Below the pieces are notes generated by a model, which had not been told where the DNA came from, searched no databases, and worked only from the letters and a program-made list of their open reading frames with translations. This document shows positions 1,585 to 51,600 of a stretch of DNA of 64,000 nucleotides, piece by piece (the first letter of the stretch is position 1; each line of letters begins with the position of its first letter). Both the position numbers and the translations under genes were made by a program. The stretch comes from Candidatus Aenigmatarchaeota archaeon (GTDB taxonomy: Archaea; Aenigmatarchaeota; Aenigmatarchaeia; Aenigmatarchaeales; Aenigmatarchaeaceae), in NCBI GenBank assembly GCA_043802485.1, contig JAZDKZ010000007.1:50457-114456 (forward strand). The letters are read 5' to 3'.

Positions 1585-2619
1585 TTATTTCCATAGCCTG
1601 CTAGGAACCCATTTCAAACCCCTGACAGGCATTTTCTCTCCGCATTTGGGGCATTTCAGGTCCTTTTTGAGCAAGAGCCTTTTTACGCCCATGATGCTTC
1701 TTTCAATGGCCAGTTCTCCGCATTCCGGGCAGTATGTGTTCTCCAGCTTGTGGCCATGAACGTTACCGACATAGACATATTTCAGGCCCTGTTCCTTGGC
1801 TACCTTGTAGGCCTTTTCCAAAGTTTCCACGGGTGTCCTAGGCAATTCTGTCATCTTGTGTGTTGGAAAGAACTGCAGAATATGAAAAGGCATCTCCTCC
1901 CCCAGATTGTCAACAATCCACTTGCACAGCTTTTTCAAATCCTCCATATTGTCGCCTATTTCCGGAACTAACAGGTCGGTTATTTCAGTGTAGACCTTGC
2001 TCTTCTTGTAGGCCAGCAAGGCATCGAATATGGGCTCGACTTTTGGTACTTGGGATAACTTGCTGTAAAAGTCCGGATTTGCAGAGCCCTTGAAATCCAC
2101 GGTGGCGGCGTCAAGGTATCTTGATATCTTATTTATCGCTTTAGGAGAGGTGTAGCCGTTGGTCACAAACATGTTGTACAGGCCCTGCTCTGATGCTATT
2201 TTGGCTGTGTCATAAGCGAATTCATAGAATACAGTAGGCTCGACATAAGTGTAGGAGATGCCTTGCACTCCATTTTTCTTTGCCAGTTCCACGACTGCTT
2301 CTGGTGTATAGTCCTCGCCCGAGATATCAGCCTCCTGTGATATCTGCCAGTTGCAGCAAAAATCACAGCGAAAGTTACAGCCAACGCTGGATATGGACAA
2401 GGTCTTTGAACCGGGAGCAAACATGTACAAAGGCTTCTTTTCTATAGGATCCACAGCCACGGAATAGAGCTTTCCGTAGACAAGCGAATAGAGCTTTCCC
2501 TTTACGTTCTTTCTGACCCTGCAAAACCCGGTCTGGCCCTCGGGTATATTGCAATTTCTAGCGCACAAGCCACAGCTAACGGCATTTTCCAGCTTTTTGT
2601 AGAACAAGGCTTCCTTCAT
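1585..2619 (-). CDS. Radical SAM enzyme, AmmeMemoRadiSam-system / PFL-activase-like
   Basis: Radical SAM cluster motif C-NFRC-DFC (CxxxCxxC) preceded by a GxC motif. A C-terminal CPxCG...CPKCG zinc ribbon and the overall layout are typical of the AmmeMemoRadiSam radical SAM family. Confidence 0.65.
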   Translation of the reverse strand: MKEALFYKKLENAVSCGLCARNCNIPEGQTGFCRVRKNVKGKLYSLVYGKLYSVAVDPIEKKPLYMFAPGSKTLSISSVGCNFRCDFCCNWQISQEADISGEDYTPEAVVELAKKNGVQGISYTYVEPTVFYEFAYDTAKIASEQGLYNMFVTNGYTSPKAINKISRYLDAATVDFKGSANPDFYSKLSQVPKVEPIFDALLAYKKSKVYTEITDLLVPEIGDNMEDLKKLCKWIVDNLGEEMPFHILQFFPTHKMTELPRTPVETLEKAYKVAKEQGLKYVYVGNVHGHKLENTYCPECGELAIERSIMGVKRLLLKKDLKCPKCGEKMPVRGLKWVPSRLWK

Positions 2620-2658
2620 GATAGTTATTTAATTTTCAAAGCATTTTATACTTATTAT

Positions 2659-2744
2659 GCCCTAGTAGCTTAATCTGGTGAAGCGTTCGCCTCGTATAAG
2701 TTCGGGAAAGCGAAAGATTGCAGGTTCAAATCCTGCCTAGGGCT
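2659..2744 (+). tRNA. tRNA-Thr(CGU) with a ~12-nt canonical (37/38) intron at about 2697..2708
   Basis: Hand fold: acceptor GCCCTAG/CTAGGGC, discriminator U. D-stem GCTT/AAGC. Anticodon stem TTCGC/GCGAA with loop CTCGTA+A (anticodon CGT) interrupted by TAAGTTCGGGAA. Variable loop AGATT. T-arm GCAGG-TTCAAAT-CCTGC. No encoded CCA. Confidence 0.75.
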
Positions 2745-2799
2745 CTTTACCACAGCAAGTGGTAAAAAAGCACAAGCACTGTAAATACATACTATTTAC

Positions 2800-3635
2800 A
2801 TGCACTTAGAAACTAAATACCTAAAAGAGCTTTCCAAAAATGAAAGGGATAAGATTTTTGTTAAAATTGGTATTAAGAAAAATAAATTGAAATGCATAAG
2901 AAAATTGCCGCCAAAGCAAAAACTAATAGAATCTGCCAAAATAGCACTTCAAATAGACCCTACCACAAATGAGGATTTCATTGAGTGGATAGCCGGATAT
3001 GAATGGAGAGGAATTGTTCATAATTACTTTGATAATTTAGATGCTCTTCTTTCTTTTGCCAAAAAGGAGTTGCCTGTCATTAGAAAGAGTTTTGTATACA
3101 AAAACAATCCTAAAAAGATAGATATCCTTAGAATATTGCCATCAAAAATAGATATTCTGGATTTACATTGTGATATCAATGAGGATGAAATTCATATCTG
3201 GCAAAAAAATAATAGCCGCATCAGAAGCGTTAAATTAAGAAGAGAAATAGACAAAAAATCTTTCTTGTTGGCATGTCTCTCTACGCGGGAGAGGGAACAA
3301 AATCCAAAGGAAGGCATGATGTAGAAATAGTAAATTCCAACTTCTCTTTAATAAGAATATTTATTAAATTTCTTTCGGCACTGGGCATCAAAAAAGATGA
3401 AATAGGAGCTAGAGTGCATGTGCATGATAAAAAAGACGTAGAACATGCAACCCAGTTATGGATGGAAAATGTCGGATTGACTAGAAAACAATTTAAGAAA
3501 CCTTTGATGAAGAAAAGAGGCCGCAAAGTGAACAAGAGGTGTTTTACCTTGGATTTACGCGTCTATAATTCCATGTTACAAAATCTATTATTATACTGGC
3601 TATCTGATTTGGAAAGAATAATAGACTATATTTAA
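2800..3635 (+). pseudogene. Free-standing LAGLIDADG-family homing-endonuclease-like gene, split by a frameshift at an A6 run (two ORFs: 2800..3324 and 3273..3635)
   Basis: ORF2 begins ...KIFLVGMSLYAGEGTKSKGRHDVEIVNSNFSLIRIFIKFLSALGIKKDE when read through in its own frame. This closely parallels the intein block FCRLVGYYLAEGYTQGNEAITFTFNKKEKGYVFDVCFLMRKIFGLK at 7090-7200. ORF1 has a second degenerate motif (FIEWIAGYEWRGIV) about 100 aa upstream, the usual spacing in double-motif LAGLIDADG enzymes. The frames switch at the homopolymer acaaaaaatc (3253-3258). Confidence 0.35.
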
Positions 3636-3677
3636 TCTCCCTCGGGGCTTTTTATTTCTATTGTCTCAATTATCATT

Positions 3678-3869
3678 ATGGCCGAACTAAGAGGCTATAA
3701 AAAAATCATGAACTCAATAGAACATGATAGAATGAGAATGGCTGTAACTGGTGAATCATTTGATGATATTGTGAACGAGGGCATTTCTCCGGAAGACAGA
3801 AAATATTTGGATGATATAGATCGAAAAGTTGCTGCTGATCTCGGAAGAAAAAGAGGATATAACAAATAA
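3678..3869 (+). CDS. Small hypothetical protein (63 aa)
   Basis: Short charged ORF in an intergenic gap; no motif. Confidence 0.3.
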   Translation: MAELRGYKKIMNSIEHDRMRMAVTGESFDDIVNEGISPEDRKYLDDIDRKVAADLGRKRGYNK

Positions 3870-3947
3870 TAAGAAGATAGTATATTTCTCTTAGCAGAAA
3901 GCTATAAATTTGTCAACATAATAATTAAAAGAGTAAAGGGTGATGAA

Positions 3948-4418
3948 ATGGAAGTTAGAATATACGAGATAGAAAAGAACGCTGTTTCAAAGGTGAAGAG
4001 TATACTGGAAAGTACGGACAAAAGTGACATAGAACTCAAATGTCAAAAGTGCGAAAAAACTGAAACTAAAACAATAGACGCTGGTAGACTTACATCAGAT
4101 GAGAGCAACGAAAGGTTTGAGAAAGCCAATCCTTGTACATGTGGAGGACCAACAAAAATAGTTTCCAGTAAAATTTCTTATATAAATGAACTTGTTAGAA
4201 ATGGGTATGGTTTACATGGTGCTCAGGCAATCGAAGTTGAAAAGGATTCATCATTCCTCTACATAAAAGCAGACGAAGATTTTTTCAGAAAGAATGAAAA
4301 ATTGTTAATGATTGAGGGTGTAAAGAAAATGGAAGGAAATGAGATGGAAAAAATAAAAAACAAAATAGAGGAACTCGAAGAAAAGGCCTTAGAAGGCTTT
4401 GGAGGCATATTCGGATGA
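3948..4418 (+). CDS. Hypothetical protein with Cys4 zinc-ribbon (CQKC...CTCGG)
   Basis: CxxC ... CxC spacing typical of a zinc ribbon; Lys/Glu-rich C-terminal helix; preceded by an A-rich leader. Confidence 0.4.
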   Translation: MEVRIYEIEKNAVSKVKSILESTDKSDIELKCQKCEKTETKTIDAGRLTSDESNERFEKANPCTCGGPTKIVSSKISYINELVRNGYGLHGAQAIEVEKDSSFLYIKADEDFFRKNEKLLMIEGVKKMEGNEMEKIKNKIEELEEKALEGFGGIFG

Positions 4419-4675
4419 TGGCTGTCTTCACGATTGGGGCTGACGAAAGAAGGGTGGCCCAGATGATGGAGATTGCCCAGGCATGGGGCTTTATTGGCAA
4501 GTATTCTGATTCCAAGAGGCTCTTGGACGACGTGATAAAGAAGAAGATTGCCTATGTCCTGGTAGTCGACCCAGAGGCAATAGAAGAAAACGTAAAAAAA
4601 CAGCTCCAAACCATGAACGTCAAGATAGTCAACTTCAATGACAAGAAAAGGCTCGAAGGCCTTATAAGAGTCTGA
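4415..4675 (+). CDS. Hypothetical protein (86 aa)
   Basis: ATGA start/stop overlap with the upstream gene suggests translational coupling. No motif recognised. Confidence 0.35.
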   Translation: MMAVFTIGADERRVAQMMEIAQAWGFIGKYSDSKRLLDDVIKKKIAYVLVVDPEAIEENVKKQLQTMNVKIVNFNDKKRLEGLIRV

Positions 4676-4691
4676 TTCTTAATTATTTTAG

Positions 4692-4779
4692 GCGCCGATA
4701 GTCTAGCCTGGTAGGACATAAGCTTCCCAATTATCCAAGGAAACAGCTTAGGACCCGGGTTCAAATCCCGGTCGGCGCA
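4692..4779 (+). tRNA. tRNA-Gly(CCC) with a ~15-nt canonical intron (about 4730..4744)
   Basis: Acceptor GCGCCGA/TCGGCGC, discriminator A. Typical archaeal Gly D-arm GTAGTCTAGCCTGGTAGGAC. Anticodon stem TAAGC/GCTTA with loop TTCCCAA interrupted by ATTATCCAAGGAAAC. T-arm CCGGG-TTCAAAT-CCCGG. Confidence 0.7.
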
Positions 4780-4811
4780 CTATCATATTGATAAAAATTT
4801 CTGACATCCGA

Positions 4812-5477
4812 TTATATAGCCCCAATAGCCATCAGGTTACGACAAAAGGCGAAAATTTTATCCGTCAGGCTTAAGGTTAGAGGCTGGATGTCGTGGCTGA
4901 CATAGAGGTAGTACAGAACAACAATGGTCAAACCGATTAATTCTATGGCAGCACCTAAAGAAAATATGAACTTTTTCTTACTTACACCGTAATAAATCAA
5001 GTAGTAAATAGTTATGGCCTGCCATAAAAAGGCTACTATATATCCGATGGCGGATCTTGACAGCAGAAAACTGGAAAAGGCCGTGTTGGTCAAGATTGTA
5101 GCAAATAGCATTATAAGGTTGGCATAGTTCAAAGCAGATTTCTTAAAGTAAAGAAAGCAACCCACTGAGATAACTATACGATGCAGGCCCGCCCACATGT
5201 TCATTCCCACACCCGCACCAGCTGTTTTCGGAATAATAAAGCTGAACGAGGGTATGAAATAAAGGTCTGATATGAACATAGGAACAGTACTGGCTAGCAT
5301 TATCAACCAGAACTTGTCCTTTGTCTTGTAAAAGGCGTAAGAGAAGGCTAGGAAGGCAATGGCATCGCCTGCCAAGTAGGCTTGAGTTGCCGGTGTACGT
5401 ATCAACATGCTCCTAATGATTAGAATAAACGAGACTATCGCTACTGTGTAAACAAGCAGTCTGACCTTGTCCGCCAT
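4812..5477 (-). CDS. Polytopic integral membrane protein (about 6-7 TM), function unknown
   Basis: 221 aa, almost entirely hydrophobic helices separated by short loops. Confidence 0.5.
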   Translation of the reverse strand: MADKVRLLVYTVAIVSFILIIRSMLIRTPATQAYLAGDAIAFLAFSYAFYKTKDKFWLIMLASTVPMFISDLYFIPSFSFIIPKTAGAGVGMNMWAGLHRIVISVGCFLYFKKSALNYANLIMLFATILTNTAFSSFLLSRSAIGYIVAFLWQAITIYYLIYYGVSKKKFIFSLGAAIELIGLTIVVLYYLYVSHDIQPLTLSLTDKIFAFCRNLMAIGAI

Positions 5478-6108: not shown

Positions 6109-6180
6109 GGGCCCATGGTCTAGCGGTATGACGCCACCTTGACAGGGTGGAGGCCGAGAGTTCGAATCTCTCTGGGCCCA
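6109..6180 (+). tRNA. tRNA-Val(GAC), 72 nt, no intron
   Basis: Acceptor GGGCCCA/TGGGCCC, discriminator A. D-arm GTCT-AGCGGTA-TGAC. Anticodon stem CCACC/GGTGG with loop TTGACAG. Variable loop AGGCC. T-arm GAGAG-TTCGAAT-CTCTC. Confidence 0.85.
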
Positions 6181-6194
6181 CTCATAGTGTTTTG

Positions 6195-8591
6195 ATGAAA
6201 ATCTTTGCGGACTTGCATTTGCACAGCCATTACAGCAGAGCCACTTCCAACAGGATGAACATAGAGAACCTGGAGAGATACGGCAAACTGAAAGGATTAA
6301 ATCTCATAGGCACAGGAGACTTTACCCATCCGCTCTGGCTGAAAGAGCTTAAGGGAATCCTAAAAGAAGTGGACGGCTTCTACAAGTACAAGGAAAGCAG
6401 CGTCTCTTTTGTTCTTCAGGCAGAGGTCGCCATTATCTACAGGCAGGATGAAAAGTCAAGAAGGGTGCATCTTGTCCTTCTTGCGCCAAGCTTTGGTGTT
6501 GTCGACCAGGTTAACGATTTTTTATCAAAATATGGAAAGCTAGCATCAGACGGCAGGCCCATTCTTACAAAGATAGACTGCGCGGAACTGACGGAAAGGC
6601 TGATGCAGATATCAAAGGATATTATGGTTATACCCGCACACTGTCTATTACCGAACACAAAAATTATTGCCAATCCAGAAGTCAAAAGCATAGAAGATGT
6701 TAAAAGGGGGGATTTTGTATATACGCACACGGGACTGAAGAGAAAAGTAACAAAGGTCTTTTCCCATAGGTATAGAGGAAAACTGCTCAAAATCACACCC
6801 TGGTATTTTTCTGTTGAAACCCCTTCAACACCTGAACACCCTTTCCTAGCTATAAAAACCAAAAAAAACTGCTCTTGGACCAGTGGAATTTGCAAACCGT
6901 CAGAAACTCATTTGAAAAGGTGTAATTCAGAGGAGCACAAAAAGTATCATCCCGAATGGATACAAGCTAAGAATCTAGAGATTGGGGATGTTTTGGTTTA
7001 TCCAAGATTCAGAGAGAAAAACATAGATGTCGGCCATATAGCGTTTGGAGACAGAAAAATTGAATTAGATAGAGATTTCTGCAGGCTTGTTGGATATTAC
7101 CTTGCGGAAGGCTACACTCAAGGCAATGAAGCGATAACATTTACGTTCAATAAAAAAGAGAAAGGCTATGTTTTTGATGTGTGTTTTCTAATGAGAAAAA
7201 TATTCGGTTTGAAACCATCTAAAGGAAAAACAGAAAGTGATGCCATATTCTATTCCAAGGCCATAACTGAAAAATTTAAAGAGCTGTTTTATACTAGAAA
7301 GCCGTATAGGGCGTTTAACAAAAAATTGCCAGAGGACTTTATTTACCTGCCAGAAGAAAAGCAAGTCGAAATTCTCAAAGGCTGGTGGAGAGGCGACAAA
7401 GGAAGCACATCATCCAGATTATTGGCGAATCAAATGAAAATTGTCTGTTTAAGATTAGGCATAATACCATCCTTTACAATCGACACTGTGCAGTCCCATA
7501 AAGAAAGGGGCAAACATTTAATAGGGGATAGAGAAATCCGAGCAAAGCATGACAATTTCATACTTCACCGATTGAGCTTTTTTGAAGACAGACTCAACCT
7601 GCTGAAGGATCCCGCATTTAAAAAATGCGTATCAAAAACAAAGATGAGGCATGGGTGGCTGGATGGAAGGTTTATTTACATACCCATAAGAAAAATAGAC
7701 ATTGCTTTTTACGACGGCAATGTACTAAATTTAGAGGTCGAGAAAGATAATTCATACTTGACTGAATCTGCTGCTGTTCATAATTGCTGGACGCCGTGGT
7801 TCGCGCTTTTTGGCAGCAAGTCAGGCTTTGACAGGATAGAGGACTGCTTCAAGGACCAGACAAAGAACATATTCGCCTTGGAGACAGGCCTTTCAAGCGA
7901 TCCGGCAATGAACTGGCGCCTGTCCGCCTTGGACAAATACACGCTGATAAGCAACAGCGACTCTCACAGTCCCTGGCCGTCAAGGATAGGTAGGGAGGCG
8001 AATGTCTTCAATGCTGAAATGACCTACAAGGACGTGTTAGATGTTCTGAAGAAGAAGGACCCTAAAAGATTCCTTTACACGATAGAGGTCGACCCGTCAT
8101 GGGGTAAGTACCACTGGGACGGCCACAGGGCATGCAACGTCTGCATGAGCCCGAAGGAATCGCTAAAGCACAAGAACATTTGCCCTGTCTGTAAAAGGGA
8201 ACTGACCATAGGCGTTGAGCACCGCGTCGAGGAATTAGCAGACAGGGAAGATGGCTTCAGGCCTGATGGAGCGATACCATTCAAGAAGATTATACCCCTT
8301 TCTGAATTGATAGCAACAGTGTACAACACCCAATCTTTCGCGAAAAAGGTGTGGGCAGAGTCATCCAAATTATTGAACGAGTTCGGCTCAGAGTTCAAGG
8401 TCCTTTTGGAGACGCCGGAGGAGAACCTGAGAATAGTGACGCATGAGAAGATTGCCAAGCTGATAATAAAGAACCGGAACGGCGATTTGAAAATACACCC
8501 TGGCTACGACGGCGAATACGGCAAGCTTATCCTCGAAGAAGAGGGCTACATCAAACAGCCACAAAAGAGACTGGACTCTTTCACAAAATAA
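6195..8591 (+). CDS. PHP-domain nuclease, EndoQ-like (TIGR00375-like), interrupted by a 381-aa intein; the spliced host protein would be about 417 aa
   Basis: N-terminus MKIFADLHLHSHYS is the PHP-domain metal-binding signature. The C-terminal part has a zinc finger (CNVCM...CPVCK) and a size near the roughly 420-aa P. furiosus EndoQ. The ORF-track start at 6147 lies inside tRNA-Val; the first plausible ATG is 6195. Extein junctions are VIPAH|C...HN|CWTPWFALFG. Confidence 0.6.
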   Translation: MKIFADLHLHSHYSRATSNRMNIENLERYGKLKGLNLIGTGDFTHPLWLKELKGILKEVDGFYKYKESSVSFVLQAEVAIIYRQDEKSRRVHLVLLAPSFGVVDQVNDFLSKYGKLASDGRPILTKIDCAELTERLMQISKDIMVIPAHCLLPNTKIIANPEVKSIEDVKRGDFVYTHTGLKRKVTKVFSHRYRGKLLKITPWYFSVETPSTPEHPFLAIKTKKNCSWTSGICKPSETHLKRCNSEEHKKYHPEWIQAKNLEIGDVLVYPRFREKNIDVGHIAFGDRKIELDRDFCRLVGYYLAEGYTQGNEAITFTFNKKEKGYVFDVCFLMRKIFGLKPSKGKTESDAIFYSKAITEKFKELFYTRKPYRAFNKKLPEDFIYLPEEKQVEILKGWWRGDKGSTSSRLLANQMKIVCLRLGIIPSFTIDTVQSHKERGKHLIGDREIRAKHDNFILHRLSFFEDRLNLLKDPAFKKCVSKTKMRHGWLDGRFIYIPIRKIDIAFYDGNVLNLEVEKDNSYLTESAAVHNCWTPWFALFGSKSGFDRIEDCFKDQTKNIFALETGLSSDPAMNWRLSALDKYTLISNSDSHSPWPSRIGREANVFNAEMTYKDVLDVLKKKDPKRFLYTIEVDPSWGKYHWDGHRACNVCMSPKESLKHKNICPVCKRELTIGVEHRVEELADREDGFRPDGAIPFKKIIPLSELIATVYNTQSFAKKVWAESSKLLNEFGSEFKVLLETPEENLRIVTHEKIAKLIIKNRNGDLKIHPGYDGEYGKLILEEEGYIKQPQKRLDSFTK
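6642..7784 (+). mobile_element. Intein (381 aa) with LAGLIDADG homing-endonuclease domain
   Basis: Begins with Cys (CLLPNTKI...), ends ...AAVHN, followed by extein Cys. Internal DOD blocks LVGYYLAEGY and ILKGWWRGDKGS. Splicing-domain blocks flank the endonuclease domain. Confidence 0.7.
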
Positions 8592-19020: not shown

Positions 19021-19123
19021 TGGACCGGAGGGGACTCGAACCCCTAACCTCTTATGGCCCTGAAGGGTTTCCATTTTGGTTTAGATTGCCAAGGAAGCGA
19101 TCTTCCAGTTGATCTACCGGCCC
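19021..19123 (-). tRNA. tRNA-Ala(GGC) with two putative introns (about 13 nt at 19073..19085 after the anticodon loop; about 17 nt at 19052..19068 inside the 3' strand of the anticodon stem)
   Basis: Reverse complement: GGGCCGG-TA-GATC-AACTGGAA-GATC-G-CTTCC-TTGGCAA-[TCTAAACCAAAAT]-GGAA-[ACCCTTCAGGGCCATAA]-G-AGGTT-AGGGG-TTCGAGT-CCCCT-CCGGTCC-A. G3:U70 Ala identity pair is present. The spliced product is nearly identical to Methanocaldococcus-type tRNA-Ala (GUAGAUCA..GAUCGCUUCCUU.GCAAGGAAGAGG). Confidence 0.55.
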
Positions 19124-19162
19124 TGTTATTTAGAATAAAACTTTCCTAAATTTATAAATGAG

Positions 19163-19272
19163 TGGGCCGGGCAGGACTCGAACCTGCGATATTCACCGTG
19201 TAAGGGTGACGTATGCCATTGTTCCAAGGGCTCAACCCTAAGAAACAATCATAGCCGCTAGACCACCGGCCC
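19163..19272 (-). tRNA. tRNA-Val(UAC) with a 37-nt non-canonical intron between D-arm and anticodon stem (about 19210..19246)
   Basis: Reverse complement: GGGCCGG-TG-GTCT-AGCGGCTA-TGAT-T-[GTTTCTTAGGGTTGAGCCCTTGGAACAATGGCATACG]-TCACC-CTTACAC-GGTGA-ATATC-GCAGG-TTCGAGT-CCTGC-CCGGCCC-A. D-arm is almost identical to tRNA-Val(GAC) at 6109. Textbook anticodon stem-loop with anticodon TAC. Mature length 73. Confidence 0.5.
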
Positions 19273-19390
19273 TTGCTTATTTAATTAATTCAAATCAATT
19301 TAAAAGTTTACTGTAGGGCTTAAAGAAAAGAAATACTAGCCGGAAATTTAAATCCTTTTAACTTATACAAAAAGAAAGAAAAAAGTGGAT

Positions 19391-19530
19391 GTGGGCGAGG
19401 GGAGATTCGAATTCGGTAGCTCTCATCCACAAGAGCTTCTCCCGACCTCCAGTTTCTACAGAACACAGCCAACAAAAAGGACTGACGTCCTCTTATAAGA
19501 CTGGCGCTCTGCCAGGCTAAGCTACCCGCC
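19391..19530 (-). tRNA. tRNA-Ile(UAU) with two introns (39 nt canonical at about 19454..19492; 27 nt between T-stem and T-loop at about 19411..19437)
   Basis: Reverse complement: GGGCGGG-TA-GCTT-AGCCTGGCA-GAGC-G-CCAGT-CTTATA-[39 nt]-A-ACTGG-AGGTC-GGGAG-[AAGCTCTTGTGGATGAGAGCTACCGAA]-TTCGAAT-CTCCC-CTCGCCC-A. Anticodon loop CTTATAA fits the CTNNNAA pattern. Mature length 74. Confidence 0.5.
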
Positions 19531-19557
19531 CGTTAAGGATTTATTTTGTCTTCAGCA

Positions 19558-51492: not shown

Positions 51493-51600
51493 CGCTTCCG
51501 ACGGGATTTGAACCCGCGACCCCTTGATTTCTTCATCTTGAATCAGATCTTCTAAGTTATTTAGAAGTCAAGTGCTCTATCCAAACTGAGCTACGGAAGC
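51493..51600 (-). tRNA. tRNA-Arg(UCU) with a 33-nt canonical intron (about 51529..51561)
   Basis: Reverse complement: GCTTCCG-TA-GCTC-AGTTTGGATA-GAGC-A-CTTGA-CTTCTA-[33 nt]-A-TCAAG-GGGTC-GCGGG-TTCAAAT-CCCGT-CGGAAGC-G. The intron contains a second copy of TCAAG, so an alternative two-intron parse exists. Confidence 0.6.

Follow-up and report, generated by a model that had tools for sequence, protein, structure and literature searches.

The stretch of DNA analyzed here, referred to as the window, comprises 64,000 nucleotides (nt) from a Candidatus Aenigmatarchaeota archaeon (contig JAZDKZ010000007.1). Close to its beginning lies a complete, intron-containing tRNA-Thr(CGU) gene, followed by a gene that is split into two open reading frames (ORFs) at a run of six adenines (A6) and whose stop codon falls within an orphan copy of the 3' end of a tRNA-Thr gene. 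Comparison with homologous loci (L001 and others) makes it probable that this locus is a very recently inactivated, free-standing gene of the homing-endonuclease type that lives in the tRNA-Thr gene. Its features, all on the forward (+) strand, are as follows.

2659-2744, +: resident tRNA-Thr(CGU), termed the B-type allele (Rfam tRNA model, 60.1 bits, full model 1-71)
2697-2708, +: tRNA intron of 12 nt at the canonical 37/38 position (Rfam alignment, 14 nt against 2 in the model; predicted splice sites)
2745-2799, +: spacer of 55 nt with a hairpin and a box, both read from the sequence
2800-3324, +: ORF1, 174 amino acids (aa), from the ORF list and its translation
3234-3635, +: second open frame, offset -1, within which an ATG-initiated ORF (3273-3635) encodes 120 aa
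2800-3258, +: 5' part of the gene, codons 1-153, from collinearity with intact homologs and AlphaFold2 (AF2) secondary structure
3253-3258, +: A6 run, site of the 1-nt deletion, from DNA alignment with L001 and L005
3258-3635, +: 3' part of the gene in the -1 frame, codons 154-278 and stop codon TAA (3633-3635), from translation; carries the LAGLIDADG-like domain
3258-3299, +: single LAGLIDADG-type motif, IFLVGMSLYAGEGT, with the putative catalytic Glu165 at 3291-3293
3630-3651, +: orphan tRNA-Thr 3' end, composed of the T-loop remnant ATTTAAT, CTCCC, TCGGGGC, the discriminator T, and TT

One gene in two reading frames

A preliminary description of the window, made from the letters of the sequence, had proposed that the two adjacent ORFs are parts of one gene joined through an A6 run at 3253-3258, and both the position of the run and the joining are borne out. 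The zero-frame reading at the run is GAC AAA AAA TCT, and the conceptual addition of one A gives a protein of 278 aa in which ...REIDKK is followed directly by IFLVGMSLYAGEGT. Intact, related copies exist: the single-ORF homologs returned by the protein search measure 276-285 aa, among them P0001 (278 aa, 77% identity over the full length of the repaired protein), P0002 (276 aa), P0003 (278 aa), and P0005 (285 aa, 41% identity), and the repaired protein is collinear with them across the junction, which reads VDKKIFLAG in P0001, IDKKIFLVG in P0002, and VDKKIFLIG in P0003. In the AF2 model, the part encoded upstream of the run forms a helical N-terminal domain (residues ~1-90) and a beta-rich region (residues ~105-151). 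The 174-aa product is recorded by both NCBI, as a hypothetical protein of a Candidatus Aenigmatarchaeota metagenome-assembled genome, and Logan, and the 120-aa product is present in the protein library as P0010. The gene lies inside neither an intron nor an intein and is free-standing, as the preliminary description had stated.

A complete tRNA before the gene and an orphan tRNA 3' end after it

A tRNA-Thr gene stands upstream on the same strand in the window, in L001, L005, L006, and L007, and in nearly all of L010-L025, such that nearly all full-length archaeal members examined are found 45-150 nt downstream of a complete tRNA-Thr gene (CGU or UGU); across the wider superfamily, a tRNA occurs within 400 nt in 58 of 80 loci. 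At the other end of the gene in the window, the T-loop remnant of the orphan, ATTTAAT, contains the stop codon, CTCCC corresponds to the 3' strand of the T-stem, and TCGGGGC corresponds to the 3' strand of the acceptor stem; a T-run that extends to ~3658 follows and could act as a terminator. Most loci carry such a copy, from the T-loop to the 3' end, within ~25 nt of the stop codon, and the T-loop remnant (TTTAAT) contains the stop codon or directly adjoins it in the window, L001, L006, L010, and L013. Because pairwise local alignment of the tRNA with the downstream sequence was too weak for each single locus, it was replaced by an 8-mer test and by an exact-match test. Of 17 loci, 10 have the last 8 nt of the resident tRNA repeated, with at most one mismatch, no more than 40 nt from the stop codon, against a background expectation of 1.1% per locus. 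The orphan of L032, an archaeal locus linked to tRNA-Asn, is identical to the resident 3' exon over 17 of 17 nt, and L001 carries two tandem or nested relics, the first of which matches the 3' end of the resident tRNA of the window at 21 of 24 positions, with AATCCTGCCTAGGGCT shared exactly, whereas the second, of the "native" type, retains the whole T-arm. The relation between gene and tRNA is structural rather than incidental, and the orphan after the stop codon had been missed by the preliminary description.

Several resident tRNAs of these loci also carry T-loop insertions of 18-25 nt, a non-canonical intron position, at about the point where the orphans begin (L005, 5875-5965; L011; L014; L023; L032, 537-637; and Bathyarchaeia). 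Deleting the insertions from L005, L014, L023, and L032 restores a canonical tRNA, and the orphan of L032 is preceded by a repeat of the intron's 3' end (TGTTGA). As a speculation, such insertions may confer immunity or may derive from elements of this kind.

A direct repeat of the 3' part of the tRNA bounds the insert in the window and in homologous loci, and direct repeats of this type around foreign DNA are a signature of tRNA-targeted integration in archaea, although the homing reading has the repeat in common with such integration. The orphan might on these grounds be the attR of a decayed virus or plasmid that had integrated into the tRNA gene, with the split gene as leftover cargo, and the low-GC stretch at ~2750-4400 would fit such an origin. 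The insert, on the other hand, is only ~0.9 kb long and holds this gene alone in at least four divergent lineages; no recombinase domain was found in the gene, and none is annotated in the homologous loci. Downstream there is no further copy of the 3' end of the resident tRNA, and a second att-like repeat downstream as well as repeats within 2500-4900 were looked for and not found. Nor does the family have relatives in the viral contigs of IMG/VR or the phage records of INPHARED. We regard an integration scar as very unlikely.

Empty sites and exchange of tRNA alleles

The homing-endonuclease reading draws further evidence from loci that lack the gene. In the distant Aenigmatarchaeota loci L095 and L091, the radical-SAM gene (49% identical) stands beside tRNA-Thr(CGU) and the family gene is absent, and L095 continues into a homolog of the window ORF at 3948-4418. 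Closer to the window, the radical-SAM proteins of L171, L172, and L173 are 68% identical to that of the window and 72-74% identical to that of L001, and by this measure the three loci appear about as close to L001 as the window is. Their gene order is that of the window (radical SAM, MJ0538, DUF7343). In L172 and L173 the tRNA is present (52-56 bits) with no family gene after it; the upstream stretch of L171 amounts to 126 nt and ends inside the tRNA. Loci L091, L095, L172, and L173 accordingly represent empty sites, and the family shows a presence/absence polymorphism at a fixed site, accompanied by signs of transfer and decay.

The empty sites also bear on the origin of the orphan of the window. 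Its segment at 3634-3651, AATCTCCCTCGGGGCTTT, is identical at 18 of 18 positions to the 3' end of the "A-type" tRNA-Thr(CGU) of L172, a match that spans the 3' half of the T-loop, CTCCC, TCGGGGC, the discriminator, and TT, and it is unique in the window. The tRNA that now precedes the gene in the window is a different allele from that of the orphan and resembles the tRNA of L173 and the resident tRNAs of L001, L006, and L007. L172 (35-132) and L173 (235-321) themselves hold very different tRNA-Thr(CGU) alleles, which differ in acceptor stem, T-arm, and intron layout, within identical flanks and next to radical-SAM proteins that are 100% identical; such a pattern resembles a conversion tract that does not extend beyond the tRNA. 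When the window is compared with L001, the proportion of synonymous differences (pS) is 0.55 for the gene and 0.72-0.96 for four flanking genes, and the GC content of the gene is 0.32 in a neighborhood of 0.39-0.47. Both the lower synonymous divergence and the deviating composition suggest that the gene was acquired later than the split of the hosts.

A C-terminal domain with a single LAGLIDADG-like motif

The family consists of unannotated archaeal proteins of ~280 aa in which a helical N-terminal domain and a beta-rich region precede the C-terminal domain that carries the one motif. It has no Pfam or NCBIfam model, and the source annotation offers nothing beyond "hypothetical protein". In an alignment of the domain from 40 diverse relatives, E165, G166, N179, and W221 are invariant, and E165-G166 takes the position expected of a LAGLIDADG-type motif, a helix ending in an acidic residue and a glycine. 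A profile built from these 40 sequences retrieved I-DmoI from the Protein Data Bank (PDB; E 4.5e-5, 26.5 bits, 44 residues), and nothing but I-DmoI variants scored below E 0.3. The alignment places LYAGEGTK...VE.VNS....I..F..FL..LGI on I-DmoI residues 109-150, that is, on its second LAGLIDADG helix, the beta-hairpin, and the next helix, with the family motif facing LYVAEGDK, the second motif of I-DmoI. The Pfam model LAGLIDADG_3 matches 20 of the 40 relatives at E<1 (best E 3.2e-5). Searched singly, the repaired protein reaches 13-16 bits against LAGLIDADG_3, for which the cut-off is 22.5, and nothing above threshold was found for it in Pfam, NCBIfam, or the PDB sequences; scans of 40 superfamily members against NCBIfam and PHROGs gave no match named LAGLIDADG, and the families matched were mostly helix-turn-helix (HTH) or transposase families. 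The LAGLIDADG homology put forward in the preliminary description is in this way partly supported, by profile matches and by neither the single protein nor the Foldseek and hhalign comparisons considered below. On sequence grounds the domain is best described as LAGLIDADG-like with a retained acidic residue and as a putative member of the fold.

Two more specific proposals of that description did not survive. The motif had been called a second motif, implying a two-motif architecture, and only one motif was found. A homodimer is to be expected from the single motif. The segment DFIEWIAGYEWRG (residues 59-71) was considered as a first motif and rejected, as it has no acidic residue and is not followed by the expected strands; this region is also absent from the relatives found in rRNA introns and unmatched in the bacterial ones. 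The motif had further been taken for a close paralog of an intein block. BLASTP against the intein-bearing protein at 6147-8591 gave a best E of 4.9 with the motifs unaligned, the intein motif receives -4.7 bits from the family profile, and hmmsearch with this profile found no match among the inteins and canonical LAGLIDADG genes present at these loci. The protein in question is an 814-aa PHP/MJ0043-type protein with an intein (Intein_splicing E 5e-6, weak LAGLIDADG_3), for which the syntenic gene of L001 encodes 786 aa with the same domains, and its intein endonuclease has nothing but the generic motif in common with the present gene.

Origin of the frameshift

The DNA alignment shows a 1-nt gap at the A-run in the window relative to L001 and L005. 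The homologs read GACAAGAAGATT, GACAAGAAAATT, GATAAAAAGATT, and AAAAAGAATCTT at this site, with the codons GAC AAG AAG ATT, GAC AAG AAA ATT, GAT AAA AAG ATT, and AAA AAG AAT CTT, and among the homologs compared none has an A-run or a shift here, all remaining in one frame. The shift is therefore lineage-specific and not a conserved recoding site. The ancestral run was presumably A7 (AAA AAA A), itself derived from AAR AAR A through synonymous changes, from which one A was then lost. Apart from this, the copy is undamaged: it retains all 38 residues that are invariant across eight full-length family members, no further stops or indels were seen in it, and its ratio of nonsynonymous to synonymous change (dN/dS) after the shift is 0.14-0.21, compared with 0.22-0.24 between intact copies. 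As judged from this preservation, the lesion would be either very recent or an error at the level of the reads.

The second of these options would mean that the genome has A7 and that the gene is intact and active, and it bears on the frameshift alone. That the lesion is a single base in a homopolymer, in a gene with its invariant residues in place, normal dN/dS, and no other stop or indel, is what such a sequencing or consensus error would leave. An independent assembly of SRR27458548, however, contains the same A6 in a Logan contig (L169) that is identical to window positions 2272-4421 over 2150 of 2150 nt, and the interrupted products are on record, the 174-aa one in both NCBI and Logan and the 120-aa one as P0010. 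Homopolymers of 6-7 nt are seldom miscalled in short-read consensus sequences, which would apply if the reads are short ones. We consider an error improbable, and because the two assemblies agree, a real, recent deletion is the most likely cause.

A third option is that the full-length protein is produced by programmed -1 ribosomal frameshifting or by transcriptional slippage on the A-run. A tRNA-Lys could re-pair one base back on AAA AAA, the downstream frame is fully preserved, and archaeal -1 frameshifting reportedly occurs on A-AAA-AAT in Saccharolobus fucA1. The zero-frame phasing at the run, on the other hand, is C-AAA-AAA and not an X-XXY-YYZ heptamer, no homolog shares the shift or the A-run, and A6 is short for efficient transcriptional slippage. 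No stimulatory RNA structure was found downstream of A6, the fold of 3245-3345 giving a z of -0.32 against shuffled sequences. Low-level -1 slippage on the run could yield traces of the full-length protein, with no sign of programming, and recoding as the explanation of the split gene is highly improbable. Of the three possibilities named in the preliminary description, a decaying homing-endonuclease gene fits best, a sequencing error is less likely, and a slippage-dependent gene is very unlikely.

Relatives of the family in archaea and bacteria

An exhaustive profile search returned 1951 representative proteins at E<=1e-3, of which a few are full length (281-285 aa); the great majority share only residues ~150-270, and in many of these partial relatives the N terminus is a Pfam HTH domain (HTH_23, HTH_28, or Sigma70_r4_2). 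A metagenome scan added 16 full-length relatives at 32-40% identity, one of which is assigned to Bathyarchaeia by its source. No relative was found when the GTDB representative genomes were scanned with the motifs of the close family, and full-text searches of the literature returned no description of the family or of tRNA-linked LAGLIDADG-like genes. Some copies are degenerate: in L021 and L022 the start codon is lost (ACG) and the upstream tRNA is unrecognizable, and in L016 the ends are shifted.

Two relatives, in L036 (17-688) and L037 (240-875), are encoded within an archaeal 23S rRNA gene, in an insertion of 618 nt (L037, 172-789) located at position 1416 of the Rfam model LSU_rRNA_archaea and constituting a putative rRNA intron, with a 211-aa ORF that contains LYAGEGTK and FEFVNSDP. 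Introns of archaeal 23S rRNA are the classical home of archaeal homing endonucleases, and these relatives lend support from context to a nuclease or homing function.

The bacterial relatives in the metagenome loci L042-L088 (63-76% GC) encode proteins of ~216-250 aa in which an N-terminal HTH is combined with the same C-terminal domain, and their genes are located directly upstream of tRNA-Asn(GUU) on the same strand; in L067, for example, the gene occupies 2794-3444 and the tRNA 3435-3508. In about half of the 45 loci, the ORF ends in ...AIPG* at a TAG that corresponds to U8-A9-G10 of the tRNA, resulting in an overlap of 10 nt, so that RNase P cleavage of a co-transcript of gene and tRNA-Asn, if there is one, would take away the stop codon. 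Fragments of tRNA-Asn were looked for upstream of the bacterial relatives and not found. A further set (L034, L044, L058, L059, and L079; 42-47% GC) encodes HTH-plus-domain proteins of ~217-244 aa and is found 43-53 nt upstream of tRNA-Gly(UCC).

The resident tRNA, the spacer, and neighboring genes

The identity of the resident tRNA as an intron-containing tRNA-Thr(CGU), proposed in the preliminary description, agrees with the Rfam alignment, which places C-G-U at positions 34-36 between U33 and A37, a 12-nt insertion after position 37, and U73 as the discriminator. The acceptor stem is GCCCTAG/CTAGGGC, the T-arm is GCAGG-TTCAAAT-CCTGC, and the discriminator is encoded by T. A possible bulge-helix-bulge, read by eye, consists of the helix CUCG/CGGG with the bulges UAU and AAA. 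ARAGORN called 2659-2745 as Arg(TCG), or as Ser(CGA) in intron mode, and both calls were rejected as register errors by the Rfam alignment; the intron-free orthologs in L025, L091, and L095 are called Thr(CGU) by ARAGORN. Elsewhere in the window, several tRNA genes contain introns of ~13-70 nt (19021-19531, -; 51493-51600, -; 4692-4779, +), and of the eight tRNAs that Rfam recognizes, four escape ARAGORN in its default mode and others receive a wrong label, making automated tRNA annotation unreliable here.

The distance of 55 nt between the tRNA (2659-2744) and the ATG, as given in the preliminary description, is correct. Within this spacer, a perfect 7-bp hairpin (TTACCAC AGCAA GTGGTAA; 2747-2753/2759-2765) follows right after the tRNA and recurs in L006 but not in L001 and L007. 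A box, ACTGTAAATAC (2778-2788), is located 12-22 nt before the ATG, too near for the TATA box of a leaderless transcript; it is also conserved in L001, L006, and L007, and in L005 the conservation is partial. More distant homologs show GGGG(C)-TTAAAT, which is BRE/TATA-like, 22-27 nt before a GTG or ATG start that is followed by a His codon, and this element may serve as a promoter, which would fit a leaderless mRNA.

Around the gene, the stretch at 2750-4400 has a GC content of 30-35%, against 40-47% in its surroundings, and includes ORFs at 3678-3869 (63 aa) and 3948-4418 (156 aa). A tblastn search with the 63-aa and 156-aa products found no counterpart in L001, where unrelated ORFs of 181 aa and 100 aa are present instead, followed by a shared 86-aa gene. 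On the other side of the tRNA, between tRNA-Thr and the radical-SAM gene, an unrelated, canonical double-motif LAGLIDADG_3/Hom_end gene of 268-269 aa is found in L006 (201-1010, -), L171 (127-933), L172 (171-977), and L173 (360-1166), with an overlap of 4 nt into the start of the radical-SAM gene; neither the window nor L001 contains this gene of 268-269 aa. The tRNA of L006 is thereby flanked by two endonuclease families.

Discussion

The architecture, the empty sites, the identity of the orphan, the replacement of alleles, and the decay by a 1-nt deletion are directly seen at these loci, and the homing of an endonuclease gene is the mechanism that we propose for them. The protein, probably acting as a homodimer, would cut element-free tRNA-Thr genes in or near the T-arm, which as an inverted repeat would suit such a dimer. 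Repair of the double-strand break would then copy a cassette from the donor, made up of the 3' half of the tRNA T-loop, the 3' strands of the T-stem and acceptor stem, the trailer, the element's own promoter, and the ORF. The homology arms would be the upstream part of the tRNA on one side and the orphan with its flank on the other, comparable with the exons of a mobile intron. The element would in this respect resemble a T-loop intron, but it would bring along a replacement 3' part, such that a complete tRNA is kept without splicing, and the displaced native 3' end would be left behind as the downstream homology and probably as a terminator. Co-conversion could replace part or all of the upstream tRNA. 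Later decay, in which A7 loses one A and the gene falls apart into ORFs of 174 aa and 120 aa, would be the stage to be expected after a homing element has become fixed.

Several observations weigh against this mechanism. The second AF2 model (22 sequences) has a pLDDT of 87, with values >90 within the domain, compared with 69 for the first model (4 sequences), for which the Foldseek matches were uninformative; even so, no solved LAGLIDADG structure is among the 50 Foldseek PDB matches listed for it, the best of them are RidA-like (E 7e-3, TM 0.2-0.4), and the matches in BFVD are weak. Comparison by hhalign with the neighboring bona fide LAGLIDADG_3 family gave a probability of 0.6%. In the predicted structure, the domain runs alpha, beta(beta), alpha, beta, alpha, beta, alpha, and the first half of this series fits the alpha-beta-beta-alpha of the LAGLIDADG core fold (alpha-beta-beta-alpha-beta-beta-alpha), but an extra helix is placed between strands 3 and 4, where the segment FW...G...QF.KP is conserved. 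Each orphan by itself is short, and at several loci (L012, L015, and L017) it is degenerate or missing. Base-composition effects may explain part of the low synonymous divergence, and the A6 run, for which the evidence consists of assemblies, could reflect a systematic homopolymer error. Finally, the family is under purifying selection in all pairs compared (dN/dS 0.08-0.24), and its position is kept across Aenigmatarchaeota, Bathyarchaeia, and other archaea, both of which a host function would also explain.

The main rival follows from these last points, namely that the family is a domesticated, tRNA-linked DNA-binding protein that acts as a host regulator or processing factor for tRNA-Thr expression, with the orphans as old duplication scars reused as terminators and the window carrying a null allele. 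Conservation of position in several archaeal phyla, the fusion of an HTH to the domain in bacterial relatives with their rigid arrangement at tRNA-Asn, and fold searches that retrieve no nucleases are all in agreement with it. A host factor of this kind would, on the other hand, not be expected to be missing from relatives as near to L001 as the window is, nor to end in an orphan identical to the 3' end of another allele or to be followed by nested relics as in L001. The GC content of the gene is unadapted and its synonymous divergence is below that of its neighbors, the acidic residue of the motif is invariant, relatives occur in rRNA introns, and copies with lost starts or shifted ends are found in L016, L021, and L022. 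On balance, domestication appears unlikely, and a homing-type gene accounts for more of the evidence.

With respect to known systems, the closest in sequence are the LAGLIDADG enzymes of archaeal rRNA introns, and the closest in architecture are free-standing genes that carry a replacement 3' end. Among solved structures, the family profile matches I-DmoI alone, with the Glu aligned; two remote family members themselves reside in a 23S rRNA insertion, and the target is in both cases a highly conserved structural-RNA gene. The family differs from I-DmoI in having one motif instead of two, an added N-terminal helical domain, and the FW...G...QF.KP segment; the gene here lies outside an intron, and the fold match is not reproduced by Foldseek or hhalign. 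In the mitochondrial atp6 element of Allomyces macrogynus, reportedly described by Paquin et al. in 1994, an intact gene copy is said to be followed by an endonuclease ORF and a displaced orphan 3' fragment, which is the same architecture, splicing being unneeded because the element brings the gene end. In contrast to that element, the host gene here is a tRNA, the duplicated piece measures ~20 nt, the carriers are archaeal chromosomes, and the endonuclease belongs to another family. Free-standing endonuclease genes beside tRNA genes are also known from phages, where SegB of T4 and the endonucleases of the T5 tRNA region reside in tRNA clusters and probably cleave the DNA of competitors' tRNA genes, spreading together with the markers that flank them; these, however, are GIY-YIG or HNH enzymes located between tRNA genes, and they are not associated with orphan tRNA ends. 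A helical or HTH DNA-binding module joined to a LAGLIDADG-type domain is likewise present in WhiA, a bacterial transcription factor with two LAGLIDADG domains that lack the catalytic acids and a C-terminal HTH, which would serve as a model for domestication, whereas the family has a single motif with an invariant Glu and its extra domain is N-terminal; LAGLIDADG_WhiA gave a weak match in 1 of the 40 relatives (E 0.094). Integrative elements of the SSV and pNOB8 types share the insertion at a tRNA gene and the duplication of its 3' part but differ in that the locus here has no integrase, consists of a single gene of ~0.9 kb, and shows a repeat that starts in the T-loop.

The broken copy itself is an ordinary decaying selfish gene in a metagenome-assembled genome, and the novelty resides in the family and its fixed geometry of complete tRNA, gene, and orphan 3' end. 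Interpreted as proposed here, the locus would be a natural example of homing into a tRNA gene in which splicing is avoided by a carried gene end, and it would offer a possible link between selfish endonucleases on the one hand and non-canonical tRNA introns and tRNA allele replacement in archaea on the other. It also draws attention to a pool of compact, single-motif putative nucleases with add-on DNA-binding domains, the targets of which can be guessed from context, and to tRNA callers, which are shown to mislabel intron-bearing tRNAs of this kind. More tentatively, and at odds that we place below even, these genes may form an unrecognized class of endonuclease cassettes whose homing into tRNA genes involves no intron, occurring by insertion into the T-loop and with a substitute T-arm and acceptor 3' end, and which would be historically linked to the non-canonical T-loop mini-introns of archaeal tRNAs. 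If so, they would explain concretely how tRNA introns can be gained at odd positions and would test the idea, reportedly put forward by Randau and Soll in 2008, that disruption of tRNA genes protects against selfish DNA, and the superfamily of ~2000 clusters, including the HTH-fused bacterial relatives, would constitute a large, untapped set of nucleases that target RNA genes.

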